Shown here in pieces: positions 4,672-63,372 of a stretch of 64,000 nucleotides of DNA. Numbering within the stretch: position 1 is the stretch's first letter; the number at the start of each line of letters is the position of its first letter. The stretch comes from Escherichia coli (GTDB lineage Bacteria > Pseudomonadota > Gammaproteobacteria > Enterobacterales > Enterobacteriaceae), in assembly GCA_025336725.1 (NCBI GenBank), contig GCA_025336725.1_3647.1, one strand, 5' to 3'. The notes beneath the pieces were generated by a model. The model saw nothing but the letters and a program-made list of their open reading frames with translations, ran no database searches and was not told the DNA's origin. Position numbers and translations under genes: made by a program.

Positions 4672-4682
4672 TTTGCTGTCTC

Positions 4683-5204
4683 CTAATGCAAAAAGCCCCA
4701 CCCTTTCGGGCAGGGCCTAGTGTTAAACCCGATACCTATTGTATACTCGGTGGATACCAATGTCAAATCTAAATTTAAAATTTCTTGCATCTCATAGTAT
4801 GCGTCCAGGGTGAGATACATTTCTCCATCCTTTTCTACATACTTGTCCAAGTGCTTGAGGCATTTCGGATAACTATCGAGTGCAGCTTTCAGACACTCAA
4901 ATTCTGTGCTGTTGATGAATCCTTCCATCTTAGCTACCCGTTCTGGAGTAACGATAGCGCTGTAGTGAGATTTAGCTTCCTGAATGCAATGGGTCCAAGC
5001 ATCAACTTTCTCTTCGAAAAGTCCGAAGAACTTCTTTTTAGTGAGCTTCAGATTCTTTAAGTGCTTAAGCACTCGGTTGCCGATCACAGACACATCACGA
5101 AACTTAAGGATCACTTTGTCGATATCCTCGCGACCTATTTTCACAAAGCAAGCCTCACACATTTCAGGAGCTGCGTAACCTACTTTCCACATAAAATCTG
5201 ACAT
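4683..5204 (-). CDS. hypothetical protein with N-terminal Cys-rich motif
   Basis: 173 aa ORF; N-terminus WKVGYAAPEMCEAC resembles motif in plus-strand ORF 22155..22355. Confidence 0.5.
   Translation of the reverse strand: MSDFMWKVGYAAPEMCEACFVKIGREDIDKVILKFRDVSVIGNRVLKHLKNLKLTKKKFFGLFEEKVDAWTHCIQEAKSHYSAIVTPERVAKMEGFINSTEFECLKAALDSYPKCLKHLDKYVEKDGEMYLTLDAYYEMQEILNLDLTLVSTEYTIGIGFNTRPCPKGWGFLH
4690..4716 (-). terminator. terminator-like GC hairpin plus T-run overlapping 3' end of upstream ORF
   Basis: Minus strand GCCCTGCCC-GAAA-GGGTGGGGC followed by TTTTT; overlaps last codons of ORF 4683..5204, so function uncertain. Confidence 0.3.
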
Positions 5205-5611: not shown

Positions 5612-5913
5612 CAGAAACCTCCTGTCTCTTCAGCAAATGCAGCCGCTGTTGTTGCTGCATCCAGATAAGACTCTAGTTCACGTGCTGCCCGTTTGTAAAT
5701 CGAGTGGCGAATATCGTTCGGCAGTTGGTAAAAATCCACCTCTTCTCCGTTGTGGTAAACATGCACATCAGTAATCTGTCTAAATCCATAATAATCAACA
5801 TCAGAATCACGGCACTCTGGATCTGGCAACTGGACAACTGCCTGAGCCTCTACAGTGAGCATATTGTCAAGTTCGAAATCGATTTCAAAAGTGTATGGTT
5901 TATAACGCTTCAT
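5611..5913 (-). CDS. hypothetical small acidic protein
   Basis: 100 aa ORF, start/stop abutting neighbour. Confidence 0.5.
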   Translation of the reverse strand: MKRYKPYTFEIDFELDNMLTVEAQAVVQLPDPECRDSDVDYYGFRQITDVHVYHNGEEVDFYQLPNDIRHSIYKRAARELESYLDAATTAAAFAEETGGF

Positions 5914-5974
5914 CGTTTGGTGTTCTCCTTAGTTTTTGTGGGGAGGAGTGCCTCCCCTTTATACTCACATTTTA

Positions 5975-11378: not shown

Positions 11379-11391
11379 AATAACTCCAAAT

Positions 11392-11417
11392 AGAAAATCC
11401 CCGCCGAAGCGGGGGTG
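11392..11417 (-). terminator. rho-independent terminator
   Basis: Minus strand CCCCCGC-TTCG-GCGGGG hairpin followed by TTTTCTATT, just downstream of stop of ORF 11427..11807. Confidence 0.6.
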
Positions 11418-16630: not shown

Positions 16631-16642
16631 TGACAGGGGCCA

Positions 16643-22355: not shown

Positions 22356-22363
22356 CTATAAAA

Positions 22364-22390
22364 GAAAGGGGGCATTTCTCCCTTTTTTAT
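22364..22390. terminator. bidirectional terminator at convergence of plus and minus operons
   Basis: GGGGG-CATTT-CTCCC hairpin with T-rich flank on the plus strand (TTTTTTAT) and on the minus strand (TTTCTTTT). Confidence 0.5.
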
Positions 22391-22395
22391 CTTTA

Positions 22396-23043
22396 CTACT
22401 TGTTAAAGAGAGAAAGTCGCGTAGGCTCCAGACGATACTGCTGGTCACCAGGGAACATAACACCTATAGAGGCTGTCCCTAGAATCCTACCTTCCTTTCC
22501 AGACTCCATTCTGAACCCTACCCATCCTGAACTCCTTGCAGCCTCGATGTTGTCGCTATACCCGAAAGTGGCAAGATCGTCAACACCAGCCCCAAACAGC
22601 AACTGAAGCTGACTTCTCGGAAGCCCTATAATTTCAGGAATATATGCACCAAAGTACACCATCTGCCCTACCTTAGGACCACTGCCGTACTCCATCGGCT
22701 TGCTTGTAGGAAAAGTCTTCATACCAGAAGTCCCTGCCGGATTAGGGTATGCCCCGTTTGTTGCTGTGCCTATCCACATTCTCCACTGAGGTGCCATCTG
22801 TCTGACAGTGAAAGATGTTGAAGACGTTTTGCGGCCTGCATCATCCGTAACTACAAACTTTATAGTGACATTACCAGGGGCTTTAAATGTTACCAATCCT
22901 GTGGTAGCATCCACTGTTGCAATGCTAGTATTACTACTTTCCCAAGTCTTTCTAATCCCTGGCACATTGGAAGGGGTAATAGAAGGTTCCTGCATCTGCA
23001 GTTTACCGCCCACAATCCCTATGCCGTTACCTGGATTATACAA
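22396..23043 (-). CDS. Ig-like (Big_2-type) domain protein; possibly C-terminal extension of upstream large protein
   Basis: ..WESSNTSIATVDATTGLVTFKAPGNVTIKFVV.. Big_2-like; ORF-track start is TTG, frame open from 14 nt below the upstream stop. Confidence 0.4.
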   Translation of the reverse strand: MYNPGNGIGIVGGKLQMQEPSITPSNVPGIRKTWESSNTSIATVDATTGLVTFKAPGNVTIKFVVTDDAGRKTSSTSFTVRQMAPQWRMWIGTATNGAYPNPAGTSGMKTFPTSKPMEYGSGPKVGQMVYFGAYIPEIIGLPRSQLQLLFGAGVDDLATFGYSDNIEAARSSGWVGFRMESGKEGRILGTASIGVMFPGDQQYRLEPTRLSLFNK

Positions 23044-23057
23044 CGCACCAACTTCAT

Positions 23058-26000
23058 CTACAATGTTACCTGCCTTGAGGTCAGCTTTAGAGAAGCTGGG
23101 GTGCCGTTATATGTGTGTGTCCCTGAGAAGGTTACATCTGCCTTGCCGTTGGAGATGCAAACCAAAGCATACTTCCTGTCAGGTAACTGTGCCCCAGTTT
23201 CTGGGTGAGTTTTACCCACCTGGAACACGCTCGGGTCAGTAGAGTCGTGGCTATCACTAACAGAGCTTGGACCCCCCATCAACTGTGACAAGCAATTCCT
23301 TACCCATGTCCAGTTATTGTCACTAGAGAAGTCTACAGTCAAATCAAACACAACCCACTCATTTGGCTTCCACACAGGTGTTGTGATCAACTTACCAACA
23401 CCCCCACCCTGAAGGGTAGGAGATTGTTCAGTGATCAAGGCAGAGTATGCCAGAGTTCCCAACTGCATAGTCTGGCTTGCTGTCCTCACTACCTTAGAAT
23501 CAGCATCTGTGAAGTTGTTGATGATCTGGAATGTGCCATAAGTGTTTTTACAGGTAATTCTGGCATTCAGTGTATCAATCTTTCTCACATCTGCCATGGC
23601 AGTGTTAGACACAGAGAAGTCAGAAGCTTTAGCTGAGTTTGCTGCAACAGCCGGATCAACGTTGAGGGTTGCGTTGAACTGGCAGGCAGGAGTAACCAGT
23701 AGCTTGTTATCACCTATTTGCTTCCATGAAACACTTTGAACAGGGAGATTCCATTTAATACCTGAGAAAACTTTAGCAACCCTTGGTCCCAAAGCTCCAG
23801 TTCTATTGTCTTTACAGCACATAGACATAGTGATCGTTGACGGAGTTGCTTGACCAAACAATTGCTGTGCTTTTGCAGAGGACATAGTGTAGAAATTGTC
23901 CTTAACAAACTCATCAGCCGCTAACGATCCGTCAGACCTCCACCATTGTACCTGGTACCCTGTCTTATCCCAGCCACCAACCTGCTTCAAGTCCTCCCAA
24001 GAGATTTCTAGATCCCCAGTGGTAGGATTGATTGCAGCAGTTCCTGGTGTACCGGATGACCACAATGGGATATCGAACCACGCAGGTTTAACAGATTGCA
24101 CTGCGTTAGGACCTATTGCAGCAGCAAGTTGCCGGCCCATCAATACGCGAGCATCTTTCACCAGACCCCACTCGATCATAGATCCAGAGTAACCTTCTTT
24201 CTTGTAGGCTGAGGATCCGTTCAGATGGATGAGTCTGCTGCAGTCGAAGCCATACGCCCCGCCACCGTTAGGGTCTGCAAAGTTAGTTATGATTCTATCC
24301 CTAATATTTTTCCATGCCCTACCTCCAATCTCGTAGCCATGATCATAGCATCTTTGCAACGTTGTCCAGCAAATGATTGCCATTCTTCTGCCGCCCGTGA
24401 ACCCGAAAGCGCCGTCATTCAGCTCTTTCCACAGGTAACAGTTGGTTGTCCACATAGCCCTGTGGATATTGAACCAGTTTATAGATTTAGCGGAGTTGTT
24501 CCACCGAGTTCCGGGTAATTCAGGCCACACTGCATTTACTAGCATGTCCTCTGTACCAGCATCTATCAGGAAGCCTCTTACCTTCTTGCCCATACCTGCC
24601 CTGTCTTTAGCAATCCAATTGCCAAACAGTCTCAGTTTTGGACCGTAGACAACATCTTCTGGATGCTCAAAAGAAACATACTTTAGATATACTGTAGGGT
24701 CACCATAGGTGCCATCACAAACAGCTTTGTGCATGTTCTCGCCAAGATCTAAACGAAGTCCTGTTACAACTTTAGACGTGTCGGTGAATTTGTCTGTTAA
24801 ATCAAATTCATACCACCACCATCCACCGCCAAGCATGAATTTCTTGCATCGCACAGTGTCTGTATCGGATATTCTCTTATCCCCAGCAAAAGGTGAATCA
24901 GCAAACTGATAGTGCAGAGCAGTCTCGAACAGATGTGTTGATGTGCCGTTTTCTGCAAGAACTTGCTTGCCTATTAAGTCACACTTAATGATCATCACAA
25001 CACGCTTGTACCCGTTTGTTACCGGAACTTGCATAGATATAGATGTTCCGTCCATGTTCGATCTTAGTACGGTCATGATGATATAGGGGTCAACAGCGTT
25101 GCCTAAAGTTTCAGGCCCTGGGATTATCTTGTACTTCTTGACCTGCCCCATAAATCTATCACTGGCGTAAGTTGCAGCCTCTAAGCAAGAGCCTCCACCA
25201 GGTAACTCACCAGGTCCCCAGAAAAATGCGCCATAACAGTTATAAAACCACTTGTTAGGGTCGTATTTGTTCTTGAAGGTCTGAACCTCGTTGGCCTGTT
25301 TTGTCAAGAAAACCTGCGTATCTGTGAAGATTGCAGGGTTTACTCTTGACTGTCGATTAGCATACCCGGTTTGGTTAAACCATTGATTGCAAGAGTAGTC
25401 CCTCATATAGTCATAATCAGAGTATTTGTTGTTTGCATCCTCGTTCCAACACATATTGAGGTTGGTGCCGCCCATGCACACAATATATTCTTCAACGTAT
25501 TTATCACTTCTGGTAGGAACACCTATGAACCATCTGTTAACAGGCTCATCCCAAGCGGTGCGCTCATCTTTAACGCAGATCGCAATCCAGTTATGTGTCC
25601 CTGTTTTCTTGCACACATCTCGCTTCATACCGTAGTAGAATTCTTTAGTATTTGGCTCAGGTGCGCTTATTAGGTAGCTCCACGCCTGGTCCGCATAGGT
25701 TCCATTGGTACGAGGGTCATGATCAAAAGCATACATGATGATCCTTTCCCCACCAAGATGTTCGCCAAGAGTAACTTTGATATTCACATCGCCGTAACCG
25801 TTGCGAACAACATCCATATTGTCAATAGAGATGCCTCTAGGGGTGTAGGCAATTTTCAGTGAGTTATCCTCACTAGTGCCACCAAGGGTGATCCCTATGT
25901 TGTTTGTTGTCCCGTCGGCATATCTTACTGTGGCTTCCCAGCGTATTCCGAAATATCCTACATCATGGCTGACAATTTTCAGTGTACGAGCACCAGAGTT

Positions 26001-26369
26001 AGGTTTTCCAGGATCAGGCCAAGGGTTTGGGTGTTCGTGAACAGTTAACGATGTCCCGTTTTGTTCATTGACCTGCAACATTTTACCACCTCTGCCGTTT
26101 GGGTTGAACTCCCATAAGGCCTGTGTCTGCACCAAGTTATCATAGGTATTTCGTCGCTGATTATAAATCTCTTGGGTAACATCATAAGTTACTGATCCAG
26201 CATCCATTCTATGGAGTCTGACCATATACGATGTATCCCCTTCTACTGCAGGCTGAGCCGCATTCAGTCCAAAGTATATAGTATCATTAACATGGAACTG
26301 TTTGTTTCTACCGACAGTATGCCATTTACCATCAGACTGGTAAGCCGGGACAATGGTGTTCCAGTTCAA
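23058..26369 (-). CDS. large tail fiber / tailspike-like protein with putative carbohydrate-active domain
   Basis: 1103 aa; ORF-track start is TTG without good RBS; frame open upstream into 3' end of ORF 26423..28033. Confidence 0.45.
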   Translation of the reverse strand: MNWNTIVPAYQSDGKWHTVGRNKQFHVNDTIYFGLNAAQPAVEGDTSYMVRLHRMDAGSVTYDVTQEIYNQRRNTYDNLVQTQALWEFNPNGRGGKMLQVNEQNGTSLTVHEHPNPWPDPGKPNSGARTLKIVSHDVGYFGIRWEATVRYADGTTNNIGITLGGTSEDNSLKIAYTPRGISIDNMDVVRNGYGDVNIKVTLGEHLGGERIIMYAFDHDPRTNGTYADQAWSYLISAPEPNTKEFYYGMKRDVCKKTGTHNWIAICVKDERTAWDEPVNRWFIGVPTRSDKYVEEYIVCMGGTNLNMCWNEDANNKYSDYDYMRDYSCNQWFNQTGYANRQSRVNPAIFTDTQVFLTKQANEVQTFKNKYDPNKWFYNCYGAFFWGPGELPGGGSCLEAATYASDRFMGQVKKYKIIPGPETLGNAVDPYIIMTVLRSNMDGTSISMQVPVTNGYKRVVMIIKCDLIGKQVLAENGTSTHLFETALHYQFADSPFAGDKRISDTDTVRCKKFMLGGGWWWYEFDLTDKFTDTSKVVTGLRLDLGENMHKAVCDGTYGDPTVYLKYVSFEHPEDVVYGPKLRLFGNWIAKDRAGMGKKVRGFLIDAGTEDMLVNAVWPELPGTRWNNSAKSINWFNIHRAMWTTNCYLWKELNDGAFGFTGGRRMAIICWTTLQRCYDHGYEIGGRAWKNIRDRIITNFADPNGGGAYGFDCSRLIHLNGSSAYKKEGYSGSMIEWGLVKDARVLMGRQLAAAIGPNAVQSVKPAWFDIPLWSSGTPGTAAINPTTGDLEISWEDLKQVGGWDKTGYQVQWWRSDGSLAADEFVKDNFYTMSSAKAQQLFGQATPSTITMSMCCKDNRTGALGPRVAKVFSGIKWNLPVQSVSWKQIGDNKLLVTPACQFNATLNVDPAVAANSAKASDFSVSNTAMADVRKIDTLNARITCKNTYGTFQIINNFTDADSKVVRTASQTMQLGTLAYSALITEQSPTLQGGGVGKLITTPVWKPNEWVVFDLTVDFSSDNNWTWVRNCLSQLMGGPSSVSDSHDSTDPSVFQVGKTHPETGAQLPDRKYALVCISNGKADVTFSGTHTYNGTPASLKLTSRQVTL

Positions 26370-26422
26370 AGTCCTTGTTGTATGAGTCCTGCCTGTGCCA
26401 TGTTTGTCATGATAGGTTATTT

Positions 26423-28033
26423 TTACGGATACAGCCCACGTCTGTTAACATTCCTGTTATACTGGGTGACAATAACTTCGTTGGCCCCTCCGTGGTTCCA
26501 GTTGGTAGAGAATTGGTAATTTGCATCTGTAACAACCGTGCCTGCAGCATTTACCAGTTCAATCTTGTCAATAATGAACGTAGCCCCCTCTGGCTGAGGC
26601 TTCAATTTCATCTTGACTGTGTCGCCAATGTAGATATTGCTAACGCTGCTAACACCGTTAACGTCGAAAATATCATCAACTCCCCAACTGTCTACTGGGA
26701 CATTTTTATACCAATTCTCAGGAACCTCTGTGAACCCTTGACTATTAAGTCTGCCGCCAAACAGGTTATTAGAACCTGCAAAACTTCCCCTTGGAATGCC
26801 TGACCACCAAAGTTTACCATTAACAACAGTAAAAGTCCCTAAGAAACCTTCTCTGTGAATGCCTTGGAAATAAACACTTTCTGTCCAGCTAACTGGGAGG
26901 CGTTGCTCAACGTATTTGGCTGTGGCAAGAGCTTGATAGTGGATAAAATTGGCCCTGGGGCTATTGTTTGCAGACTGTGCACCAATATCATTACATAAGT
27001 TGCGAGAGAATCCGCGATACTGCTTAGTACCATTATTGAAGAAAATGCCACTTGTTCCGTACCCACGAGCCATTATTACTTCATGGGTGTAGGTAATATT
27101 TAAGGAACGCCATGTATCATCTCCCCAGACATCTTGCCCGTAGAATACGTTAACAAGCTGCTGATCATTAGGCTTGTGCATCCTCTGCGTTGCAATTATC
27201 GCCCCGTTAGGACCACACATGAATCCTTTCCACTCCTCATCTGCAGGAATGCCTTTCAAATCGTTGCGAGTAATCTGAGCAGGGGGCCAAACAAGGTCGT
27301 TTCTACTGTTGTTTCTCAGAAAGTCGTATCCAGCAATCCAAAAACCTCTAGGCCCACCGAAAATAACAGAGTTGTCATGCACCTCGCAGTTGATACTTGG
27401 GTTTTTCCAAGGGCCTGTTTCAGGATTTTCTGATGTTTCACCAATCTTTACAGGAGTTGCATGCTGGTTCTTATCTACATGTAAAGATCCGTAGGTGTTG
27501 TTACCAGACCCATACAGGTTCAGTATGCCAGTACCTTCTGCCTCTGCAATAACCCAGACAGTGTTGTTAATACCTCCCATTACCTCAATAAGGCGCTCTG
27601 GGTGGGTGTCAAGGTGCAATCCTTTAACAATCTGTTCCGGAAGAGGTGTCCACTCGTTGACGCAAACATCGTTACCACCTGCCGCAGTGGATCCGATAAG
27701 ACCTGCAGTGCAGCCGATGTAGAAAAACTGGTTATCAAAAGTCCGGATCACAAACGCACGGTCTGCTCTCCACACATGATCAACATTCCAGGCTGTCTCG
27801 CTCGGGTAGTTTATAGGGCTACGATCCCCAGTGCGACACTCCCCGAACTTGTTATAGCCAGTAATATTAAGCTGACCATCGTCAAAAAGTATAGCTAAGC
27901 TATTTACATAAGCTACTGTAGTGCTTGTACCGTCACTGTTGTCTATTGGATATGACAGAACAGCAAGTTCCTTAACTCCACTCCTCTTATCGAGGAAATG
28001 ACGACCAAGTTTTAGCAAAGGGATTGGAAGCAT
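26423..28033 (-). CDS. tail fiber/tailspike-like protein, possibly N-terminal part of the 23058..26369 protein
   Basis: 536 aa; ATG with GGAGA RBS; Gly/Asn-rich beta-rich repeats. Confidence 0.45.
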   Translation of the reverse strand: MLPIPLLKLGRHFLDKRSGVKELAVLSYPIDNSDGTSTTVAYVNSLAILFDDGQLNITGYNKFGECRTGDRSPINYPSETAWNVDHVWRADRAFVIRTFDNQFFYIGCTAGLIGSTAAGGNDVCVNEWTPLPEQIVKGLHLDTHPERLIEVMGGINNTVWVIAEAEGTGILNLYGSGNNTYGSLHVDKNQHATPVKIGETSENPETGPWKNPSINCEVHDNSVIFGGPRGFWIAGYDFLRNNSRNDLVWPPAQITRNDLKGIPADEEWKGFMCGPNGAIIATQRMHKPNDQQLVNVFYGQDVWGDDTWRSLNITYTHEVIMARGYGTSGIFFNNGTKQYRGFSRNLCNDIGAQSANNSPRANFIHYQALATAKYVEQRLPVSWTESVYFQGIHREGFLGTFTVVNGKLWWSGIPRGSFAGSNNLFGGRLNSQGFTEVPENWYKNVPVDSWGVDDIFDVNGVSSVSNIYIGDTVKMKLKPQPEGATFIIDKIELVNAAGTVVTDANYQFSTNWNHGGANEVIVTQYNRNVNRRGLYP

Positions 28034-28047
28034 TGTGTTCTCCAGAT

Positions 28048-28072
28048 AAGAAAACCGCCCCGTCAGGAGCGG
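28048..28072 (-). terminator. rho-independent terminator
   Basis: Minus strand CCGCTCC-TGAC-GGGGCGG followed by TTTTCTT, downstream of ORF 28082..29827. Confidence 0.5.
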
Positions 28073-28081
28073 TCAGATATA

Positions 28082-29827
28082 TTAACGTTGTGCAATAACC
28101 ACATCCACAATATCACCAACACCACAATATGTCAATTGTAGCAAGGTGACACTGTTGGCTTTGTTGTTAATAACAGGAGTAGCCGACAGTATGGCATATT
28201 TATCGTGTAAAGTCACGTTGTGGCCTACAGCATCCTGAATGACATAGATGATTGCAGTGAACGGGTAAGGTTTATCTTCAGCCGATGTTCCAGGCCATTG
28301 CCCTATTGTAAAATCCCCTTTCGCGTGGACAACATACATATTGGCCTGCCCGTTAGGTGTCCATGTCCCACTAGATGCGTCAGCCTCCTCTAAGTCAAAC
28401 TCCACCTTCCCTGCATGGAAAGCAGGGGCAGTAATAGTTTTACCAGCTTCAATTTCTTGAGAGGTGGTTATCTTGCCACTGGAGTTAATGCCATTACAGA
28501 CAAAGTTGACATTAGAGAAGTCTGGCAGCCACCCAGTCACTGTACCTGATATTTCAAGGTTGTGAAGGTAGGTGGTGCCCGTCCCTGCTGCGTTTAAACT
28601 AACATCTCCATTTACCTGCAAGTTTCTGGTAACGTTGCAGTTTTCAGAGTTTGCAGTTGTTGCAGTTAGAGTGGTGGTTGTCAGCTCGGTAATTACACCT
28701 TTGTTGGCTGTAAGCCCCTCTCCTTCAAAAGTGGCACGCTCATTCACCCTCAGAGTATTTAAAGATATGTTCTGGACAGATGCTGTGCCACGAATGACTA
28801 TAGATCCACCAACCTCTAAATCTCCATTGATCAGTGCATCTCCCGTGCTTTCAATATAGCTAGGGTAGATCATGGTGCCATCTACAGAGTAGGTTATCCC
28901 TGTAACGGTGCCTGTCACCTCAAGGTTCTTAACCCTAGTGGTCCCATCAACCTGCAATGTCGGTTCGGTGGCTGCCTTCATGGCATTACCACGAATGTAC
29001 ACGTAGTCAAAAAAGTTATTACCTAGACCATCAAAATGCACATCGTTGTTATTAGCCACTGGTTTCCCAGAAGTTATAGTGTCAGCTATAACTCTGTGAG
29101 TTGATACTTCATGAGGTTGCAGCTCTGTGCTTCTCCAGTCTGCATGCTTAGGATCGCTCCACGCAAAAGTTAGTGTAGAAGTATTTGCCGTAAGGATTAG
29201 GTTCCTGAAGCGTGCAGTAGAATCTGCTCCATTAACAGGCCCGTGTAAGGTAAGGGTGCCCCCAACTATGGTGTTAGCAAGTTCTGTAAGACCTTTTACC
29301 ACCAAAGATCCTACAGTAACTTTCATCCCCTCCATGGCTTTAAATATGCTATCCACATAGTCAACAACAAACTCTGTGTTTGCTATAGACTCTGACTTAT
29401 CATCCATCGGAGGTGTAGGTACTCTCGGGTCACCTTCGAACCTTGGGCTGTTAAGTTTTGCGTAGTATTTTGCCATTACTGCAGAATCGGTGTATAATCT
29501 CCAGTTCGGAGATTGTGAAGGATCTGCTGGCATCCTAACCGGGTTAGATTTTGATGCTGCTGGGGCGTACCACCACTGAGTGCCTGTATCCCCTTTAAAC
29601 TCATACAACTGGTTAAAAACTGTTGTGGATGCACCATACGCCCAAGGGATTGGTGGCGTTTTAAAATAAAGGGTGTCAAGCATGGCTTTTCGTACCGTAG
29701 GGATGGTGGTCCCATCCTCTACGACAACTTCATCCACAGCGTTACCGTTGACAATCAAGTGCAAACGTTCAGAATCAACAATTACTTGATCTACCGCCTG
29801 CTCGAAGCTTGTCATGTCTTGCGCCAT
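28082..29827 (-). CDS. tailspike/tail fiber protein (beta-helix-like repeats)
   Basis: 581 aa; AGGAGA RBS; repetitive ..NLEVTGTVTG.., ..NLEISGTVTG.. segments. Confidence 0.5.
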   Translation of the reverse strand: MAQDMTSFEQAVDQVIVDSERLHLIVNGNAVDEVVVEDGTTIPTVRKAMLDTLYFKTPPIPWAYGASTTVFNQLYEFKGDTGTQWWYAPAASKSNPVRMPADPSQSPNWRLYTDSAVMAKYYAKLNSPRFEGDPRVPTPPMDDKSESIANTEFVVDYVDSIFKAMEGMKVTVGSLVVKGLTELANTIVGGTLTLHGPVNGADSTARFRNLILTANTSTLTFAWSDPKHADWRSTELQPHEVSTHRVIADTITSGKPVANNNDVHFDGLGNNFFDYVYIRGNAMKAATEPTLQVDGTTRVKNLEVTGTVTGITYSVDGTMIYPSYIESTGDALINGDLEVGGSIVIRGTASVQNISLNTLRVNERATFEGEGLTANKGVITELTTTTLTATTANSENCNVTRNLQVNGDVSLNAAGTGTTYLHNLEISGTVTGWLPDFSNVNFVCNGINSSGKITTSQEIEAGKTITAPAFHAGKVEFDLEEADASSGTWTPNGQANMYVVHAKGDFTIGQWPGTSAEDKPYPFTAIIYVIQDAVGHNVTLHDKYAILSATPVINNKANSVTLLQLTYCGVGDIVDVVIAQR

Positions 29828-30112: not shown

Positions 30113-30850
30113 TTAAGCATAAGATATCGTGATCCATTGACCGTTTACAAATTTTTGAATAGCACCAGTCCAATAGTCACCTTGATACGGGTGTTTATAG
30201 GCGTAATTGCCGGAGCACATTACATGCCCAGGGTATACTCTTGATTCTCTGTAGGTGGTTCTGAAACGGTTTGCTATCCTTACATCTTCAACACCCCTAC
30301 TAGGCATAGGGATAGTAAGGTTACCACTGCTATCTGCGCTACTACCATTTACCCTGCGGACCACGTTTCTCCCACCAACTGTTGCATATTGACCTCTGGC
30401 GGTTTTATCGTTACAATCTACTCTTCCCCCTATTTGAGCGCTGCCGCAGGATTGTTGTCCATTAACAGTGGCTCTAGGTATCGTTACCGCATTAGCATTT
30501 GCAGAGGAGCTTTTTGCATCATTGCATTCAAGATTCCCTTGGATAGCCAGTCTTGCACGGTTGGCAGTTATAGCATTGAGCTTCATAGCCGAAAACACAG
30601 GTTGCCCACCAGAAGGTTGAAATCTCCAACGGAAACCGTCTATTTGGTGAGAGGGATCATCAAGGTCTGTGCCGTCAGCACCACCTATGTTGTCCATAAT
30701 CCAGAAATCCATCATCGTCTTGTCTGGAGTTATGGTGGTGTATATCGCCGCATTGTCTGTTGACGCGGATGCGAACTCGATTCTTTGAAGACCTAAAGTT
30801 TGAGTCTGGATCATTGTGTCTCCAGCCTTGTCAACATAAAGGTCATCCAT
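30113..30850 (-). CDS. tail fiber 1, C-terminal part (P2 gpH / Mu S-like); frame-split from N-domain ORF
   Basis: C-terminus ..AIQKFVNGQWITISYA resembles P2 gpH end (..IQKYINGTWYNVAQV); paralogue of 32171..32956. Confidence 0.6.
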   Translation of the reverse strand: MDDLYVDKAGDTMIQTQTLGLQRIEFASASTDNAAIYTTITPDKTMMDFWIMDNIGGADGTDLDDPSHQIDGFRWRFQPSGGQPVFSAMKLNAITANRARLAIQGNLECNDAKSSSANANAVTIPRATVNGQQSCGSAQIGGRVDCNDKTARGQYATVGGRNVVRRVNGSSADSSGNLTIPMPSRGVEDVRIANRFRTTYRESRVYPGHVMCSGNYAYKHPYQGDYWTGAIQKFVNGQWITISYA

Positions 30851-31161
30851 TTCTTCAGGCGAGTATACATTGAGAACTTGACGTGCGGCAGCTTTGTCTG
30901 GAACGTCTGCTGATTATTAGTGACCCTTAAGAATCTATTATCCCATCCTGGGACAACATCTTCTGTTAAATGCTTCAACATTTGGTGAGAGAGCATGTGA
31001 AGTTCAAAGTTATCAACCTCACATGCCACTCTTTGTGTCATATCCCAACCTTTCAATCTCTCTTCTTTTTTTGGCTGAGACTTATTCAACTCTCCCGTAT
31101 TTTCAAGCACAACATCCTGATTGGCCCAAATATCAAGAGGGATAACTGGTTTAGTCATCAC
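30811..31161 (-). CDS. tail fiber 1, N-terminal domain ORF (different frame)
   Basis: AGGAG RBS + ATG; MMTKPVIPLDIWANQDVVL..KGWD.. homologous to N-domain ORF 33019..33213; last ~45 codons look out of frame. Confidence 0.5.
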   Translation of the reverse strand: MMTKPVIPLDIWANQDVVLENTGELNKSQPKKEERLKGWDMTQRVACEVDNFELHMLSHQMLKHLTEDVVPGWDNRFLRVTNNQQTFQTKLPHVKFSMYTRLKKWMTFMLTRLETQ

Positions 31162-37516: not shown

Positions 37517-37551
37517 GGTATTTTACCAAATTTTGTAACAATAGTCAATCT

Positions 37552-37584
37552 GAGCATAAAAATAAACCCCGCCGAAGCGGGGCT
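37552..37584 (-). terminator. rho-independent terminator
   Basis: Minus strand GCCCCGC-TTCG-GCGGGG hairpin followed by TTTATTTTTAT. Confidence 0.6.
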
Positions 37585-37591
37585 TTAAAGG

Positions 37592-38144
37592 TTAGTCGTG
37601 AGACTCGTTCCAAGGTCCCTGGAAGCTTGAGTTAGAACGGCTTACCACAACAGTAGGACAGGATATTGCGACCCCTGTTACAGAAGACGTTGACCATGGT
37701 GTGTAGATTTCAACAACAATATCTATGGTTTGTTCACCAAGACCTGTTATCCCTACCGCACACATGCCGTTGTTGTCGTTTCCGTATTTCTTACCTGCAA
37801 GGATTTGATGTCCGGCTATCCAAACGTTGAGCTGGGGTTTCGGCAAGAGTAGCCATTCAGTTTAAAGAAGAATGTTACGTTCTTACCCTGACCTGAAACG
37901 TTATCTACGTATCTCCACCTCCAACGGCAAACCCTTTGCTTGGGAGTTATATACTGGAGCACAATCCCCGTAAGTCCCTGTGTGTGCAACAATTGCACCG
38001 AACTGGTTAGCACGGATAACAGAAGCTTCTACACGACCACGGAAGGTATCTCCGGTTGCATCTATGGTGCCTCTAAAGCTACCATTATTGGCATAAATAT
38101 CCCCACGGAAGGTACCACTAGTGGCGTTAACTGCCCCCGTGAAG
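37592..38144 (-). pseudogene. frameshifted 3' continuation of lambda J-like gene (receptor-binding region in three frames)
   Basis: After stop at 38145 a -1 frame encodes ..GNFTGAVNATSGTFRGDIYANNGSFRGTIDATGDTFRG.. (lambda J C-terminal-like), then two more frame changes (ORFs 37816..38013, 37592..37846). Confidence 0.5.
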
Positions 38145-41100
38145 TTACCAGAACTGGCGTTGAGCGTTGCCTTTCACCCACACATCCATAAATTGGGGCG
38201 TGCCCGTTCTTGTTAATATACCAACCGTATTTATGGTACTTCCGTTGCCATCGTAGTTGTTTGACGAAATCTCCTGTGCAATCTTGGCTGAAGAGATCGT
38301 GCCATTTTCTATGAAGGCATCTTTCAAGAACGCTTGGTTGTTCTTGATTGCGAAAGCAAGGGTTGCTGTTCCGTTTCCAGGGTTATATACCGCAAAATTG
38401 TTTGCACTAACCATAAAGTAGGATTGAACTTGGCCCCCAGACCCTTCCATCCCCAACTGGATACCTGCAACATATTTATTCCCTGCGGAGTCCACCTGTA
38501 TTTTTGTGCCCCACTGAGCGTTTACTTTACCCTCTAAGTCGGTTACAGCCTTAGATGTTGTAGCTACTGCAGCCCTGATCTCGGACACATCTCCAACATC
38601 ATCAATGATCTCCTGCTTAGCAACAGCAAGTTCTTGACGAATAGCTGACGCTGTTCCGTTAATCAGGTCAACAGTGGCCTGATTAGTTTCAGAAATATTT
38701 GCAGACAAATCTTTCTTAGCTTGGGTAAGCTTATTATCCAACCCCGTAATATTGTTGGTGTTGGTTGTAATCTGCCCTTTAGCAGAGGTTAATTGTTCAG
38801 ATAAGGCTGCAGTTTTCTGATTCAGCAGGTCCGTTGTGGCCTTGTTGGTGGTAGAGATCAATGTATTGAGATCAGATTTAGTGGTGTTGATCTTGCCATC
38901 TAGAGTGGTGTAGTTTTTAGATACCGTGGCGTTAGTCTGGCTAATCTTCTGGTCAAGAGTCTGAGAAGTTCTATTCAGCAAATCCACAGTGGCCTGATTG
39001 GTGCTCAGAATGCTTGCATCCAGCTCAGATCTCTGAGTATTCAACTTACCTTCCAGGCTCTTATCTCCAGCCAGATATCCTTTTTCAACATCACCGATCT
39101 GCTCGGTTAGCTCACCTTGTGCAGCAACCAGTTTTTCATCCAACGCATCTGTTTTCTTGTTAAGAAGATCAGTGGTGGATTTGTTGGTTGTCTCAATCAA
39201 CGACGACAGTTTGGCACTCTCATTATTCAAGTTGTTGGTCAACTCACCTTTCGTTGCCGTCAGCTTATTGTCCAGTGCCTCGGTTTTCCGATTAAGGAGA
39301 TCTGTAGTCGTCTTATTGGTTGATACAATCAGAGAGTTCAGCTCAGAGCTTTCCTGTGCTAAAGCATCTTCCAACTCCCCCCTTGTTGAAACAATCTTCT
39401 CGTCCAAAGCTTCAGTTTTCTGATTTAGCAGATCGGTTGTAGCTTTGTTAGTGGTCTGGATTAGAGAAGTCAGCTTGCCACTTTCTTTAGAAAGATCATC
39501 TGCAAACTTGTTCTGAGTGGCTACCAGTTTCTGGTCTAGAGTGGTAAGCGTTCCATTAACGTCCTGGAAGTTGTCGTGGGTTTCTTGGATGAATATTCCA
39601 ACCCTATCCCCCAACTGAGCATACAGCTTGTCTACTCTAGAGAACTCACCTTCCATGTGGTCAAAAGCCTCGTCAACTCTACCATCCATGTACCTGTTAA
39701 GTTCTGTGACACGATTTTCAACCTCTTCAATAGAGGAATCCAAAGTGCTCATCAACTCTTTATAAGTTTCTGTCTTTTTGAATTCAGCATCTATCTGAGG
39801 CATCAAATCCTCGATAGAGGTGTAGCAGCGTGCAGCGCATTCTACAAACTGAGAGCTACCAAAAGCGTTTGTGGTTCGAATATACCAATAATAAACCTTA
39901 TCGTTCTGCAGGCCTTCAGATGTCCAAGTTGAACCAACACCCATACGGGTGGCGTTTGAAGTAACGGTTGCATCGCTGGTGTCGGGCAACCTTGTCATAC
40001 CAGATGTCCAAAAGTCATACTGGGTGCTTACACTTGCTAAATCCCTGCTGTGTGGAATCAAGGTGATAGCAAAGTATCCCTGCTTAACCTCTACAGAAAC
40101 AGGAGCTTCAGGTGCCTGAATGTTAAACTCGCAGTACGCTTCTGGAGATACACCACCTTTATAAGATGTTGCAACCACGGTTGCTGTGTATGATCCTTTG
40201 GTCAAGCCTTCTACTCGGACAAACTGCTCAACTGTCTGTGCTGTCCAAACAATCTCTCCGTTCTTTCTTACCTGCACAATATTTTGAGCGTAAGTTCCAA
40301 CGTTGTCCCAAGCCAAAACACCGTGAGTTACTTCCCCGGCTTGGAGAACGGAATACCTGAAGTTTTGCGGTTGAGCTACACCAGATGGAGATATCGGAAT
40401 ATCTACATTACCAGAGTCCGGAAGTTGTCCTGTGGCATCATTCCACTCTTTAGCATCTTGACGGAGTTTTACCTTGACACCACCCTTTTTAGTAAACTCC
40501 CATTCAAGAACCCTCATTTCTTGGCCCACTATACCAATACTTGGGAGGTTCATTGTAACGTAACGACCAGGTTTAAATTTAAAACCTCGCATATTGCAGG
40601 TGACTTCAATAATCCTGCCAGCTCTAGCGCGTCTTAAGAAGATTGCAGAAACACGCTGGGCTTGATAAGGGCTGGTAACAAAGCGATAGTCTATATCGAT
40701 TATCTTTCTTTCTCCATCCTTCTCTATCCACTCTGGGACAAACACTGATGGAAAATCTGTTTCAGAATATCCTTTGGTCGGGCTAGTGAATCTGCCAGTT
40801 ATTGTGTTGGATCTTTTGTCAAACGAGGCTTCCGGATAGATCTTAACCTCACCACAGACACAGTCCTCACTCAGTGTCATTGTTGCAGGGCCATAGTATG
40901 CACCAACCAGCAAACCATACTTACCAGCAACATAACTAAGATCTGCACCACAGGCTTTCAGCATTTCTGCCATAATACTTGCTGGGGCCTCATCCATGTC
41001 GAACTCACCGTTAATTGTGTAACGTCGCTCACTGGTTCCGTCAGCGTTTTTTACCGCCTCGTCGCATATGTTGGCAGCCTCCTTGAAGGACTCCCAGTTG

Positions 41101-41744
41101 ATGGTCTCGTCAGGACATTTAAGGTACGTTCTTAAATAGTCTAGGATCACCAAGGCAGCGTTATTGGTATACACCTCTTTACTGATACGAGGATCATAGC
41201 ATTTTTTACCAACCTTGACGAGTGTGACGTTTGGCAACCCAAAAGGAAACTTGTTAGGGTCAAACTTGAAGCTGGCACGTAGCCAACTGATCCCTCTACC
41301 TATCATGTCTGGTGACCAAGATGGGCAGTGTGTCCCCATGAAAGGATCAGCTGTTTTTCTGTCGTTATGTAGCTCCCACGATACCAAATCTCCATACGAG
41401 GAAATAGGATTACCATCGATAAGTATATCTTCTATACCTTCCAGAGGGTGATTGGCAAGAACAATAGCACAATGAAGAGTTTTGTCTCTATCCTGCTCCA
41501 AAAACGCAAGCAATCCGGATGTGCGTGTCTTACCATACACTACAGAGCAAGGTGCAGCAGAAGATCTGAGAAGCTTTTGTCTATCTTGCTGACTTCTGTA
41601 AGATTTGTTGCCCTCAAAAATCTTATCCAGAGTTCTGGTGGTAACAGTGTTCAGGCTGTCAGCCAGAGCTGCCTTGGATGCGTTCCAGTCATAACTTGAA
41701 GATCTTGCAGAAGCAACGATGTTATCAATCATTGCAATTGGCAT
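38145..41744 (-). CDS. central tail fiber / host specificity protein, lambda gpJ-like
   Basis: 1199 aa; ..APEAPVSVEVKQGYFAITLIPH.. and ..NKYVAGIQLGMEGSGGQVQSYFMVSANNFAVYNPGNG.. match lambda J; internal coiled-coil repeats. Confidence 0.75.
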   Translation of the reverse strand: MPIAMIDNIVASARSSSYDWNASKAALADSLNTVTTRTLDKIFEGNKSYRSQQDRQKLLRSSAAPCSVVYGKTRTSGLLAFLEQDRDKTLHCAIVLANHPLEGIEDILIDGNPISSYGDLVSWELHNDRKTADPFMGTHCPSWSPDMIGRGISWLRASFKFDPNKFPFGLPNVTLVKVGKKCYDPRISKEVYTNNAALVILDYLRTYLKCPDETINWESFKEAANICDEAVKNADGTSERRYTINGEFDMDEAPASIMAEMLKACGADLSYVAGKYGLLVGAYYGPATMTLSEDCVCGEVKIYPEASFDKRSNTITGRFTSPTKGYSETDFPSVFVPEWIEKDGERKIIDIDYRFVTSPYQAQRVSAIFLRRARAGRIIEVTCNMRGFKFKPGRYVTMNLPSIGIVGQEMRVLEWEFTKKGGVKVKLRQDAKEWNDATGQLPDSGNVDIPISPSGVAQPQNFRYSVLQAGEVTHGVLAWDNVGTYAQNIVQVRKNGEIVWTAQTVEQFVRVEGLTKGSYTATVVATSYKGGVSPEAYCEFNIQAPEAPVSVEVKQGYFAITLIPHSRDLASVSTQYDFWTSGMTRLPDTSDATVTSNATRMGVGSTWTSEGLQNDKVYYWYIRTTNAFGSSQFVECAARCYTSIEDLMPQIDAEFKKTETYKELMSTLDSSIEEVENRVTELNRYMDGRVDEAFDHMEGEFSRVDKLYAQLGDRVGIFIQETHDNFQDVNGTLTTLDQKLVATQNKFADDLSKESGKLTSLIQTTNKATTDLLNQKTEALDEKIVSTRGELEDALAQESSELNSLIVSTNKTTTDLLNRKTEALDNKLTATKGELTNNLNNESAKLSSLIETTNKSTTDLLNKKTDALDEKLVAAQGELTEQIGDVEKGYLAGDKSLEGKLNTQRSELDASILSTNQATVDLLNRTSQTLDQKISQTNATVSKNYTTLDGKINTTKSDLNTLISTTNKATTDLLNQKTAALSEQLTSAKGQITTNTNNITGLDNKLTQAKKDLSANISETNQATVDLINGTASAIRQELAVAKQEIIDDVGDVSEIRAAVATTSKAVTDLEGKVNAQWGTKIQVDSAGNKYVAGIQLGMEGSGGQVQSYFMVSANNFAVYNPGNGTATLAFAIKNNQAFLKDAFIENGTISSAKIAQEISSNNYDGNGSTINTVGILTRTGTPQFMDVWVKGNAQRQFW
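38640..39500 (-). repeat. tandem ~130-nt coding repeats inside J-like gene
   Basis: About 6 repeats of ..SxLxSLIxTTNKxTTDLLNxKTxALDxKLxxxxGELT..; boundaries approximate. Confidence 0.5.
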
Positions 41745-43312: not shown

Positions 43313-43373
43313 TGTGCCTCCAGGTTAAACAATCATGATAGTTATTTTACCAGATTTTGAGTTAATACGCAAT

Positions 43374-43403
43374 ACAAACAAAAAGCCCCCGCCGAAGCGA
43401 GGG
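43374..43403 (-). terminator. rho-independent terminator
   Basis: Minus strand GCCCTCGC-TTCG-GCGGGGGC followed by TTTTTGTTTG, just downstream of fiber gene stop. Confidence 0.6.
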
Positions 43404-43411
43404 CAAAACAG

Positions 43412-50533: not shown

Positions 50534-51118
50534 TTAGTTAACATCAATAGCACGACCAGACTGGTTGGCAATAGCCTCATCATTGGAGGTAGCAATAACA
50601 CCAGAGTATTCGCGCTCATCTGGAGCAAGCGTCCAGGTATTGCGGTTAATGGTTTGTTCTGCCTCAGTCATCAGCAGATCTTTATCCTGAGTCAACAGAG
50701 AGCCTACAGGGATCGGGTTTTCCATCTCAGGACCAGCATACTGGTTCCACCATGTGGCATCTCCGGTTCTAGGCAATCTGAAGTTGATCAGGTAGTACAG
50801 TTTATTAGCCCACTTAATCCAACCCTCATCATCACAGAGAGAGGTTGTCCCAGAATCAGGCTGTGGGTAGGTGAACTGATCAAGACCTACGAAAGCCAGC
50901 CTTACAATCTCGTTCTCTTTGGTAACAACCTCAAAGAACGCTTGGTATGTTCTAGATCTTCGATCCATGGTAGACTGGAAGTTTATGATGTTTAGCACAT
51001 CCGGCTCTTGTCTTGCCACTTCCATAATCTTGTTATCAAGAACAGTCTTCATGACCTTCTTGCTGAGAAAGTCCATATAAGGGAGCAAACAGCTCGTCAG
51101 CAGCCAGCTCCCTTCCAC
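50534..51118 (-). CDS. baseplate wedge protein gp25/W-like, C-terminal part (frame-split)
   Basis: ORF-track GTG start without RBS; ..KIMEVARQEPDVLNIINF.. downstream of N-part in another frame. Confidence 0.4.
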   Translation of the reverse strand: MEGSWLLTSCLLPYMDFLSKKVMKTVLDNKIMEVARQEPDVLNIINFQSTMDRRSRTYQAFFEVVTKENEIVRLAFVGLDQFTYPQPDSGTTSLCDDEGWIKWANKLYYLINFRLPRTGDATWWNQYAGPEMENPIPVGSLLTQDKDLLMTEAEQTINRNTWTLAPDEREYSGVIATSNDEAIANQSGRAIDVN

Positions 51119-51246
51119 GTATTAAACCTCATCCACAAGCGCTGGCGCAGACTTACCTGGTTTGAATCTATCAACTCAAGACCTTTGTCTATCGCCAAAT
51201 CGCCTGTCTGCGGGTCCATCAATATGTCACTATAAAGCGTAGCCAT
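51097..51246 (-). CDS. baseplate wedge protein gp25/W-like, N-terminal part (49 aa ORF)
   Basis: ATG at 51246 with AGGG RBS right after gpV-like stop; MATLYSDILMDPQTGDLAIDKGLELIDSNQVSLRQRLWMRFNTWKG matches gp25/W N-terminal pattern. Confidence 0.4.
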   Translation of the reverse strand: MATLYSDILMDPQTGDLAIDKGLELIDSNQVSLRQRLWMRFNTWKGAGC

Positions 51247-53332: not shown

Positions 53333-53878
53333 TTATTTTCCGTTAACTTTGTTGTAGTTCCCCTGCTCAGATGGGACTATGGTGGAAGGTCTTCCATATT
53401 CCTGATAATACCAATCTGCAGCCGATTGGGTAACACCGTTTTCATCTGTCCACATCATGGATTTGTATGGCTGCCACTCTTCTGCAGCATTTGTGGACGC
53501 GGTGTCTGCAAATGCCCCTGTGTCTCTCTTGTTACCTACGTTACTACCATTCTTGCAATCGTTGACAGCCCCTTTTTGCTGGGTCTTGCCGACCTTCTTG
53601 GGGTTGCTGTATACAGTTGCATTAACAACCTTGTTCAAGTAGAATGTGCGGAATTCTGTAAGTTCCACATCAAACACCATTGCAGCACCCTCACCAACAG
53701 ACTTGTTGGCAGAAAGACTGGTTATAATGTAGTTTTCAAGGAGTCTCTCTTCAGTAACTAAAGAAACCAACTGCCGCTTATTAATGATCTCGTCAAAGTT
53801 TCCAGTGCAGCGCCGCAAGTCGCATAGACGCTGCAGGGTTTTTAGAGTCAGTATTCCTGTCAATGTAGTTTTGCTCAT
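53333..53878 (-). CDS. hypothetical tail protein
   Basis: 181 aa; ATG at 53878 directly after in-frame TAA; overlaps upstream ORF by 86 nt. Confidence 0.4.
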   Translation of the reverse strand: MSKTTLTGILTLKTLQRLCDLRRCTGNFDEIINKRQLVSLVTEERLLENYIITSLSANKSVGEGAAMVFDVELTEFRTFYLNKVVNATVYSNPKKVGKTQQKGAVNDCKNGSNVGNKRDTGAFADTASTNAAEEWQPYKSMMWTDENGVTQSAADWYYQEYGRPSTIVPSEQGNYNKVNGK

Positions 53879-54218
53879 AGATTATATGTGGTGATGTATT
53901 TACCCTACCAGTAAAAGAAAATACACCATCTTTAATTACAGCGTGGTCTGACAGGGTAGATTTATCTTCCACCGCAAACCCAGTCTTATCAACAGAATGT
54001 TTGAAAGAATAGTTCTCAACCTGGTCGAAGATAATGGCAAGATCGTTAGTAAAGTTTTTACCCTTCATCTCCGTATTGCGACCACCATAGTTAAGACCGC
54101 TGACAAACATAGTATACTTTACATCGCTTTCAGTTTGCTGCTCTGCCTTTTCAGCCTTTGGAGATTTAACCTCTTGAGGCTTGTACAGGTCTTTTTCATC
54201 AACTATATTGCTTGGCAT
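53793..54218 (-). CDS. hypothetical tail protein
   Basis: 141 aa ORF; 3' end overlaps next gene in a different frame. Confidence 0.4.
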   Translation of the reverse strand: MPSNIVDEKDLYKPQEVKSPKAEKAEQQTESDVKYTMFVSGLNYGGRNTEMKGKNFTNDLAIIFDQVENYSFKHSVDKTGFAVEDKSTLSDHAVIKDGVFSFTGRVNTSPHIIYEQNYIDRNTDSKNPAASMRLAALHWKL

Positions 54219-54282
54219 AACCTCTCCAGGACACTCCTATACCATCTAGATATTGTATCATAAACAGCTACGTTTTTACAAC

Positions 54283-54312
54283 ACCGATAAAATAAAGGGG
54301 GCCGGAGCCCCC
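54283..54312 (-). terminator. rho-independent terminator
   Basis: Minus strand GGGGGC-TCCG-GCCCCC followed by TTATTTTAT. Confidence 0.5.
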
Positions 54313-54323
54313 TGCACAGTTTA

Positions 54324-54464
54324 TTACCAAAGGTCGGTAGACATGAAGTTGATATCTTTATTGTTCTCCCACTCAAGTTTTGCATCAAATATTTTGTTAA
54401 ACTCGCCCTCATCTATTGAAATCGTGATTTTCCCATCACTGATCTCTAAAGGTAGCATTTCCAT
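54324..54464 (-). CDS. small hypothetical ORF (46 aa)
   Basis: MEMLPLEISDGKITISIDEGEF.., below ORF-track cutoff; sits just upstream of terminator; weak RBS. Confidence 0.25.
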   Translation of the reverse strand: MEMLPLEISDGKITISIDEGEFNKIFDAKLEWENNKDINFMSTDLW

Positions 54465-54637
54465 AGTTCTTAATTGAGAAGCAAAACCGAGGCCACCCCG
54501 GCAACGGAAAATCCCGCCCCATTAAGGTGTCCAAAGGATTAACAAACCCGTTACCTCAAATGAAAGTATCTTTGCGAATCATATCGCTGATAGCATCCAG
54601 CTGCTGATTTCTTTCACTTAGTGGGTTGTAACGGTCA

Positions 54638-56674: not shown

Positions 56675-56711
56675 ATAAAAAGGGCCAGATCCCAGAAAAG
56701 GAATCCGGCCC
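56675..56711 (-). terminator. hairpin plus T-run between chaperone and tape measure genes (terminator or attenuator)
   Basis: Minus strand GGGCCGGAT-(12-nt loop)-ATCTGGCCC followed by TTTTTAT. Confidence 0.35.
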
Positions 56712-56716
56712 TTAGA

Positions 56717-57493: not shown

Positions 57494-57522
57494 ATTTTAC
57501 CATGATTATAGCGCATTGTCAA
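57494..57522 (-). promoter_or_regulatory. sigma70-like promoter upstream of chaperone gene
   Basis: Minus strand TTGACA (57522-57517), 17-nt spacer, TAAAAT (57499-57494). Confidence 0.4.
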
Positions 57523-58762: not shown

Positions 58763-58849
58763 TATTCTTCCGCACGTTTTGCAATGAATCTCAACCTTAT
58801 CCCAGAGGTCTTGCTTACTACATGGCTATGACCATACTTTTCAGCATTT

Positions 58850-59149
58850 TCAAGGATATCTTTTTAATACCTTTTTGATCCACTCCTCGGTAGTGCACCT
58901 GTTACCACGCTCATGTGGGAATTTCTTACCCTTTCTTGATTTTGCAGATCTCTCAGCTCCACAAACAGGGCATCCTCTTTTTAGATTTATATGGTTATCA
59001 GGTGTCTGGTTGAAGTGGTTACCGCAGGTATTGCAGACTATTTCTACCTTATCTTTGCATGTTTTGTATTCTATAAGAGAATAATCGTACTTATCTCCGT
59101 GAACCCTACGAGCTTTTTCGATAAACCTTTCTGCACTCAATTTAGCCAT
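58850..59149 (-). CDS. small zinc-ribbon protein related to N-terminus of adjacent endonuclease-like gene
   Basis: 99 aa; HGDKYDYS..CNTCGNHFNQTPDNHINLKRGCPVCG parallels N-terminus of ORF 57524..58762. Confidence 0.45.
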   Translation of the reverse strand: MAKLSAERFIEKARRVHGDKYDYSLIEYKTCKDKVEIVCNTCGNHFNQTPDNHINLKRGCPVCGAERSAKSRKGKKFPHERGNRCTTEEWIKKVLKRYP

Positions 59150-59209
59150 AACTGTCTCCTCCTTTATTGTAGGATACTAAAAACAAACAAATATGTCAAA
59201 ACCCTAAAA

Positions 59210-59237
59210 GCAAAAAAGCCCCACCCGAAGGTGAGGC
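59210..59237 (-). terminator. rho-independent terminator
   Basis: Minus strand GCCTCACC-TTCG-GGTGGGGC followed by TTTTTTGC, downstream of tube-like gene. Confidence 0.55.
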
Positions 59238-59255
59238 TTATACTAAAGTGTGCCC

Positions 59256-63313: not shown

Positions 63314-63372
63314 TTGAAAATACCTCGTAAAAATAAAGCCCCATTCCTGATTTGGAAGGGGCCTTAACAAAA

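Follow-up and report, generated by a model that had tools for sequence, protein, structure and literature searches.

The G+C-rich hairpins between the leftward genes of this E. coli phage are very probably intrinsic (Rho-independent) terminators of the canonical type, recognized by the RNA polymerase of the E. coli host. We analysed a stretch of 64,000 nucleotides, here called the window, in which a hairpin at 37.5 kb was the focal element. This assignment is carried by the anatomy of the hairpins, by their strand and position bias, by conservation and covariation, and by prior annotation; that polymerase actually terminates at these sites, how efficiently it does so and how this would bear on gene dosage are points that we infer from the sequence. 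The elements are canonical and ordinary: a catalogue of 2013 contains most of them, and a public record already carries the focal one as an annotated feature. The value of the finding hardly goes beyond annotation, and it brings no new kind of element. It bears out that intrinsic terminators of the host type punctuate the late structural region of rV5-like phages, adds two candidates (37564-37585 and 63334-63366) to the published rV5 list, and tells terminators followed by a restart promoter apart from those that are read through, which leads to testable predictions on tail-gene dosage control.

The window derives from an rV5-like E. coli phage of the genus Vequintavirus (rV5-like myoviruses). 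A 3-kb segment around the focal hairpin matched 119 phage records at approximately 92-94% identity, and the window and the rV5 genome (NC_011041) are colinear, at 92-96% identity over nearly the full length of the window, which covers rV5 from approximately 127.7 kb, across the record ends, to approximately 53 kb. Predicted rho-independent terminators of rV5 are listed in Additional file 4, Table S4, of Kropinski et al. (2013, Virol J 10:76). Seven of these, t003, t028, t041, t049, t050, t052 and t232, correspond to the window sites at 11.4, 28.1, 43.4, 54.3, 56.7, 59.2 and 4.7 kb, with identical or near-identical sequence at colinear positions. The same table contains the promoters P036, P040, P048 and P051 (Kropinski et al. 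2013).

Two further features of the window were noted in this alignment. The rV5 methyltransferase gene gp230 (rV5 133640-134958) is missing, with the junction at 5910-5931. For several essential structural genes, a single rV5 protein matched the window only across two to four reading frames. The split genes are tape measure gp049, J-like gp037, gp027, gp048, gp030 and gp044, and the regions are 54327-56662, 37595-41744, 22426-28033, 53336-54218, 30116-31158 and 50537-51246. This implies many indels, either assembly or sequencing errors or pseudogenes; the terminator hairpins are unaffected by them.

Hairpins and promoter-like sites in the window

The terminators and promoter-like sites are listed below, with rV5 names where these exist.

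37564..37585, minus strand: focal terminator; DNA AAGCCCCGC-TTCG-GCGGGGTTT, then ATTTTTAT; RNA AAGCCCCGC-UUCG-GCGGGGUUU, then AUUUUUAU
37520..37548, minus strand: promoter-like P036, just downstream of the focal terminator; TTGACT-17-TAAAAT with an upstream TGG (TGGTAAAATA)
11399..11414, minus strand: terminator t003; DNA CCCCGC-TTCG-GCGGGG, then ATTTTCTATTT; RNA CCCCGC-UUCG-GCGGGG, then AUUUUCUAUUU
43385..43404, minus strand: terminator t041; DNA GCCCTCGC-TTCG-GCGGGGGC, then TTTTTGTTT; RNA GCCCUCGC-UUCG-GCGGGGGC, then UUUUUGUUU; -15.7 kcal/mol
43343..43372, minus strand: promoter-like P040, after t041; TTGCGT-17-TAAAAT with TGG
59216..59239, minus strand: terminator t052, directly after the tail tube gene; DNA AAGCCTCACC-TTCG-GGTGGGGCTT, then TTTTGC; RNA AAGCCUCACC-UUCG-GGUGGGGCUU, then UUUUGC; -16.7 kcal/mol
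57494..57522, minus strand: promoter-like P051; TTGACA-17-TAAAAT with TGG
56680..56713, minus strand: terminator t050, the most stable hairpin; 14-bp stem, -25.6 kcal/mol
54296..54313, minus strand: terminator t049, after the tape-measure gene; AGGGGGC-UCCG-GCCCCCU, then UUAUUUUAU; -15.5 kcal/mol
54252..54281, minus strand: promoter-like site after t049, adjoining the rV5 P048 motif; TTGTAA-18-TACAAT with TG
28053..28074, minus strand: terminator t028; GACCGCUCC-UGAC-GGGGCGGUU, then UUCUUAU; -14.8 kcal/mol
4693..4718, minus strand: terminator t232, in the replication-gene region; GGCCCUGCCC-GAAA-GGGUGGGGCU, then UUUUGC; -19.9 kcal/mol
4766..4738, minus strand: promoter P231, near-consensus sigma70, immediately upstream of t232; TTGACA-17-TACAAT
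63334..63366, minus strand: terminator-like bulged hairpin between the gp058 and gp057 homologs, then UUUUUAC; -18.7 kcal/mol

All seven hairpins pointed out in a preliminary description of this DNA were found where it had placed them, and its reading of them as terminators is well supported by anatomy, strand, position, cross-genus conservation with compensatory changes and prior annotation. Its list, however, omitted the strongest hairpin (56680-56713) and the bulged one at 63334-63366. Four main sites had been called near-identical, which holds for three of them, while 59216-59239 has no more than the loop and the GGGGC end in common with the others. On the minus strand the C-UUCG-G loop occurs at four sites (11399-11414, 37564-37585, 43385-43404 and 59216-59239), and other loops cap the hairpins at 54296-54313 (UCCG), 4693-4718 (GAAA) and 28053-28074 (UGAC).

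A generic terminator scan was dominated by weak hairpins and gave totals barely above those of shuffled sequence, so we used instead a strict scan (stem of at least 6 bp with at least five G-C pairs, loop of 3-8 nt, at least six T in the next 9 nt) with its own shuffles. The strict scan returned nine minus-strand sites and none on the plus strand, compared with means of 0.11 (minus) and 0.16 (plus) in 100 dinucleotide shuffles. This is an excess of approximately 80-fold, with all sites co-oriented with the genes. One of these sites, 54487-54501, is probably a false positive, being a weak hairpin (-7.2 to -9.2 kcal/mol) within the tape-measure gene; another hairpin, at 16635-16651, was set aside for its poor tail. 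A relaxed RNAfold-based scan produced many false positives in coding regions of both strands, and the only new candidate retained from it was 63334-63366, which is absent from rV5 Table S4.

The hairpins have stems of 6-14 bp with 6-8 G-C pairs, loops of 4-6 nt and RNAfold energies of -12.0 to -25.6 kcal/mol. At all eight intergenic sites at least six T follow within 9 nt of the last G-C pair, and the plus strand has no such tracts. Where the upstream stop codon is defined, the hairpin starts 3-16 nt past it on the minus strand. RNAfold gave a stabler fold for the minus strand than for its plus-strand counterpart at every site, partly because G·U pairs turn into A·C mismatches on the other strand. 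Several sites have interrupted U-tracts (AUUUUCUAU, UUCUUAU and UUAUUUUAU), and their efficiencies may therefore be modest.

The focal hairpin starts 6 nt after a stop codon, between a J-like tail fibre gene (homolog of rV5 gp037) and a baseplate wedge gene (gp036 homolog), and folds at -15.5 kcal/mol on the minus strand versus -12.2 kcal/mol on the plus strand. Its sequence is identical in rV5 (28667-28682), and it is not listed in Table S4, which came from a stringent screen by the rV5 authors. In Escherichia phage Murica (KT001917.1, 28932..28947) the same 16-nt hairpin carries a terminator annotation, also between tail fibre and baseplate genes. The two are orthologous, lying at the same junction with 99.2% identity over 121 nt, and both are predictions. 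Across Vequintavirus, the 121-nt focal locus is kept at 95% identity or more in 114 of 116 records. Its companion P036 was entered in Table S4 both as a sigma70-like promoter and as a 'late' MEME motif (PMC3606486), and a late-type motif, TggTAaAAtA, has been reported downstream of several rV5 terminators (PMC3606486). In the window, the motif TGNTAAAATA occurs six times, always on the minus strand, against 0.89 expected.

Two hairpins of other kinds were seen in the window. At 5940-5957, between two minus-strand genes, GGGGAGG-AGTG-CCTCCCC (-13.4 kcal/mol) has its T-run on the plus (non-coding) strand only; it could be either a terminator for antisense transcription or a structure of the mRNA. 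At the convergent junction of the rightward block and the leftward late genes (22362-22388), a plus-strand terminator-like hairpin, AAGAAAGGGGGCATTTCTCCCTTTTTT, differs from the bidirectional t026/t027 of rV5 (GGGGCCAAACGGCCCC).

Conservation of structure across Vequintavirinae

A gp036 protein search of IMG/VR gave only three near-identical loci, after which we chose GenBank phages of six other genera and compared their syntenic intergenic regions: PVP-SE1 (Seunavirus), Seu621 (Mydovirus), Hena1 (Henunavirus), PcCB7V (Certrevirus), A7_1 and TH18. In every genome compared, a G+C-rich hairpin with a T-run stands at three places: upstream of the gp036 homolog, behind the tape-measure gene and behind the chaperone gene. 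The stems themselves vary from genome to genome and include GGGGC-TTCG-GCCCC, ACCCGC-TTCG-GCGGGT, GGGAGCC-TCT-GGCTCCC and ACCACCC-TCCG-GGGTGGT; at the site syntenic with t049, GGGGC-TTCG-GCCCC is followed by TGATAAAAT. C-TTCG-G loops were pervasive among the hairpins detected in these genomes (18 counted). The hairpin is typically followed by the conserved TG(A/G)TAAAATA, which at the P036 position is kept in all six other genera.

RNAalifold was applied to seven sequences from different genera. Five of eight pairs showed compensatory changes at the focal site, as did four of 12 at t050, whose hairpin is conserved in six genera. Differing stems and compensatory changes across genera point to selection on the structure and the U-tract, and not on the CCCCGC core. 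Taken with the window data, the features of intrinsic terminators are found together: a hairpin, a U-tract, a co-oriented excess just past stop codons, and a structure conserved through compensatory changes.

These results also bear on whether the hairpins could be chance G+C palindromes, or elements acting as DNA (protein-binding or recombination sites) with no role in transcription. The intergenic hairpins do coincide with changes in gene content, such as a 1.65-kb endonuclease insertion beside t052. The approximately 80-fold excess over shuffles in the orientation of the genes is nonetheless not what chance would give, and the G·U pairs of the RNA, being A·C mismatches on the other strand, favour a structure formed at the RNA level. 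Covariation moreover preserves pairing while the sequence changes, and Rfam 15 gave no match at the gathering score over the whole window on both strands. Strand bias and covariation effectively refute this reading, to which we give almost no credence.

The position of t052 looked different in the other genera. There, the tail tube-chaperone intergenic region (L005-L010; for example L005 37702-37777) contains another conserved structure, CGTGTGCCACATGGA(C/T)GTGGCCTTT...ACACG, followed by a conserved GACGCAGGAGCGT in which the ribosome-binding site is embedded. Instead of a simple terminator, this structure may be an element for regulation or processing.

Origin of the shared core

The preliminary description had treated CCCCGC-TTCG-GCGGGG as the mark of a distinctive terminator family, a claim that is not supported: orthologous stems differ in six genera, the 16-mer is common in unrelated phages and bacteria, and the flanks are dissimilar save for a borderline similarity between the 37.5- and 43.4-kb cassettes. 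Within the window, the exact 16-mer CCCCGCTTCGGCGGGG is present in two copies, against 0.00 expected from 100 shuffles, and a repeat finder independently clustered 11387-11415, 37555-37583 and 43375-43403 at 79-83% identity over 29 nt. Beyond the window, it occurs in at least 120 IMG/VR contigs, and among the matches listed two show any similarity to the window. A T-run follows the UUCG strand in 96 of the 125 IMG/VR occurrences, versus 11 on the opposite strand, among the matches listed. At least 120 bacterial contigs from many phyla also contain the 16-mer, with a T-run after 81 of 119 occurrences among the matches listed. Searching for the core bore out its recurrence in the window, as two exact copies and a close third, and at the same time showed that it is not specific to this lineage. 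Together, these results indicate that the recurring CCCCGC-UUCG-GCGGGG most likely reflects convergence on a thermodynamically favoured, stable cUUCGg hairpin rather than a phage-specific repeat family.

Alternatively, the core could have come down by common descent, if a terminator or a terminator-promoter cassette had been duplicated or moved within the genome to give a paralogous repeat family. The two exact copies and the close third are compatible with such a history, as is a 45-nt local alignment between the regions downstream of the 37.5- and 43.4-kb terminators, which runs from the -10 element to the ribosome-binding site; the stretch from the P040 -10 element to the ribosome-binding site resembles that of the focal cassette. 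None of 300 mononucleotide shuffles reached this alignment, an empirical p of approximately 0.003 that is uncorrected for the 28 pairs compared and becomes borderline once corrected. The similarity spans a promoter and a ribosome-binding site, and could be due to paralogy or to shared functional constraint. Against descent from one cassette, the 11.4- and 37.5-kb copies have nothing in common beyond the 16-nt hairpin, their flanks being unrelated; orthologous sites in other genera carry different stems, and the 16-mer is widespread in unrelated phages and bacteria. We consider a paralogous origin unlikely. A mobile or REP-like repeat was rejected on the grounds that the flanks are not shared and the core is ubiquitous.

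Duplication of a terminator cassette does happen in the rV5 lineage, which adds some weight to the paralogous reading. We compared rV5 121300-121480 (L134) with window positions 4660-4830, and observed that rV5 t213 and t232 share an identical 22-nt hairpin with two wobble pairs, together with the T-run, ribosome-binding site and start region (approximately 55 nt). This indicates a duplicated terminator-RBS cassette and local duplication in the lineage; such duplication is unnecessary to explain the focal core. Two unrelated IMG/VR contigs were also seen to reuse the 16-mer two or three times within approximately 1 kb (L055 10360-11384 and L076 2125-2526), so rV5-like phages are not alone in using an identical terminator hairpin repeatedly in one genome.

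Termination mechanism and classes of junction

Transcription of rV5 has been attributed to the host enzyme (PMC3606486), and so has that of the related phage CB7, which has no RNA polymerase gene (PMC7344957). In the mechanism that we propose, the nascent RNA would form a G+C-rich hairpin that has an extra-stable tetraloop (cUUCGg, UCCG or GAAA) at its tip and abuts the U-tract, where the weak rU:dA hybrid would let the paused polymerase release. Termination is known to be favoured by compact tetraloops and stable stems (PMC9257418). For Vequintavirinae, our search of the literature found neither mapped RNA 3' ends nor RNA-seq or in vitro termination data.

The hairpins had been said to partition the long leftward operons into modules. 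This suits about half of the sites, at which the terminator is followed by a promoter-like site; the other four instead lie 17-20 nt before the next start codon. To the first class, probable terminators with restart, we assign the sites at 37.5, 43.4 and 54.3 kb, where a promoter-like TGnTAAAAT(A) lies within 15-30 nt and might re-initiate transcription. The 43.4-kb terminator stands downstream of the large tail fibre gene (gp041 homolog). The 59.2-kb site would join this class by way of P051 in rV5, where t052 and P051 are approximately 50 nt apart; in the window a 1.65-kb insertion separates them.

The second class, candidate attenuators, comprises the sites at 4.7, 11.4, 28.1 and 56.7 kb, where the 17-20-nt gap to the next start codon has room only for a ribosome-binding site. 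At 11.4 kb, t003 separates the gp003 homolog from the endolysin/rIIA genes, with the next start 20 nt away and no space for a promoter; t028 separates tail fibre gene gp028 from the giant gp027 homolog, at a distance of 19 nt from the next start codon; and t050 separates chaperone gene gp050 from the tape-measure gene, the start codon of which follows 17 nt after the end of the hairpin. As a promoter does not fit into these gaps, the four terminators must be partly read through and would act as leaky attenuators. This applies to t050 at least, since the essential tape-measure gene lies directly behind it. The terminating ribosome represses terminators that lie only a few bp beyond a stop codon (PMC4824070), which fits leaky attenuation. 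Together with the four promoterless sites, the published findings on loops and ribosomes suggest graded, leaky termination. Leaky attenuators would lower the dose of downstream genes, for example of the low-copy tape measure, whose gene follows those of the abundant tube and chaperone, and more generally graded termination might reduce transcription from abundant genes (sheath, tube) into low-copy ones (tape measure, distal fibres). The site classes could guide the choice of insulated insertion sites in the engineering of these therapeutic phages.

The substantial read-through needed at the four close sites also suits a different role, in which the hairpins would act mainly as 3'-end protective structures or RNA-processing barriers, stabilizing the upstream mRNA after cleavage without being release sites. 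Terminator-type 3' hairpins do shield mRNA and raise expression of the upstream gene (PMC9257418). A pure stability element, however, needs no T-run, whereas one lies right 3' of every stem and on the coding strand only; elsewhere, the 16-mer carries a T-run in 68-77% of its occurrences among the matches listed. Protection and termination are moreover not mutually exclusive. A mainly protective role is thus improbable, and we retain intrinsic termination as the reading of these sites.

Two junctions showed unexpected arrangements. The predicted start site of P231 is only approximately 15 nt before the t232 hairpin, so either this promoter yields an RNA of approximately 45 nt, or the methylase, primase and polymerase genes need read-through to be transcribed. 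The second arrangement is a 1,648-bp insertion relative to rV5, at 57546-59193, exactly between t052 and P051 and with its own promoter-like site at 59199-59171. The two ORFs of the insertion, at 58850-59149 (99 aa) and 57524-58762 (412 aa), correspond to successive parts of PHROG 559, a family of HNH/homing endonucleases, which suggests a split or frameshifted homing endonuclease. Only two other phage records, HMD-6 and JEP1, have this insertion. P231 firing into t232 and an endonuclease lodged exactly between t052 and P051 prompted the idea that Vequintavirinae have conserved the terminator-promoter junction as an architectural device, which would do more for regulation than simply stop transcription, a speculation that we rate as a long shot. 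On that idea, P231-t232 could work like lambda PR'-tR', as a switch that controls the replication genes by antitermination, and the gap between terminator and promoter may be a safe landing site for mobile genes such as the homing endonuclease.

Among known systems, the closest are the intrinsic terminators of E. coli and its phages, of which d'Aubenton Carafa, Brody and Thermes reportedly gave a statistical description in 1990. Canonical examples with cUUCGg or GNRA loops likewise have a G+C-rich stem of 6-14 bp, a stable 4-nt loop and a U-tract, and follow a stop codon. The window hairpins do not differ from them in kind, although several have interrupted U-tracts and half of them lie unusually near (17-20 nt) the next start. 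Compared with rV5, the differences are the focal and 63334-63366 hairpins, which fall outside the rV5 table, and the 1.65-kb insertion between t052 and P051. Partial terminators set gene dosage in phage late operons, as with T7 Tphi and the intercistronic terminators of T4. By analogy with these, the window has terminators placed after abundant structural genes (tail tube, chaperone) and before the low-copy tape measure with no promoter between, and they might play a comparable role in dosage in this phage.
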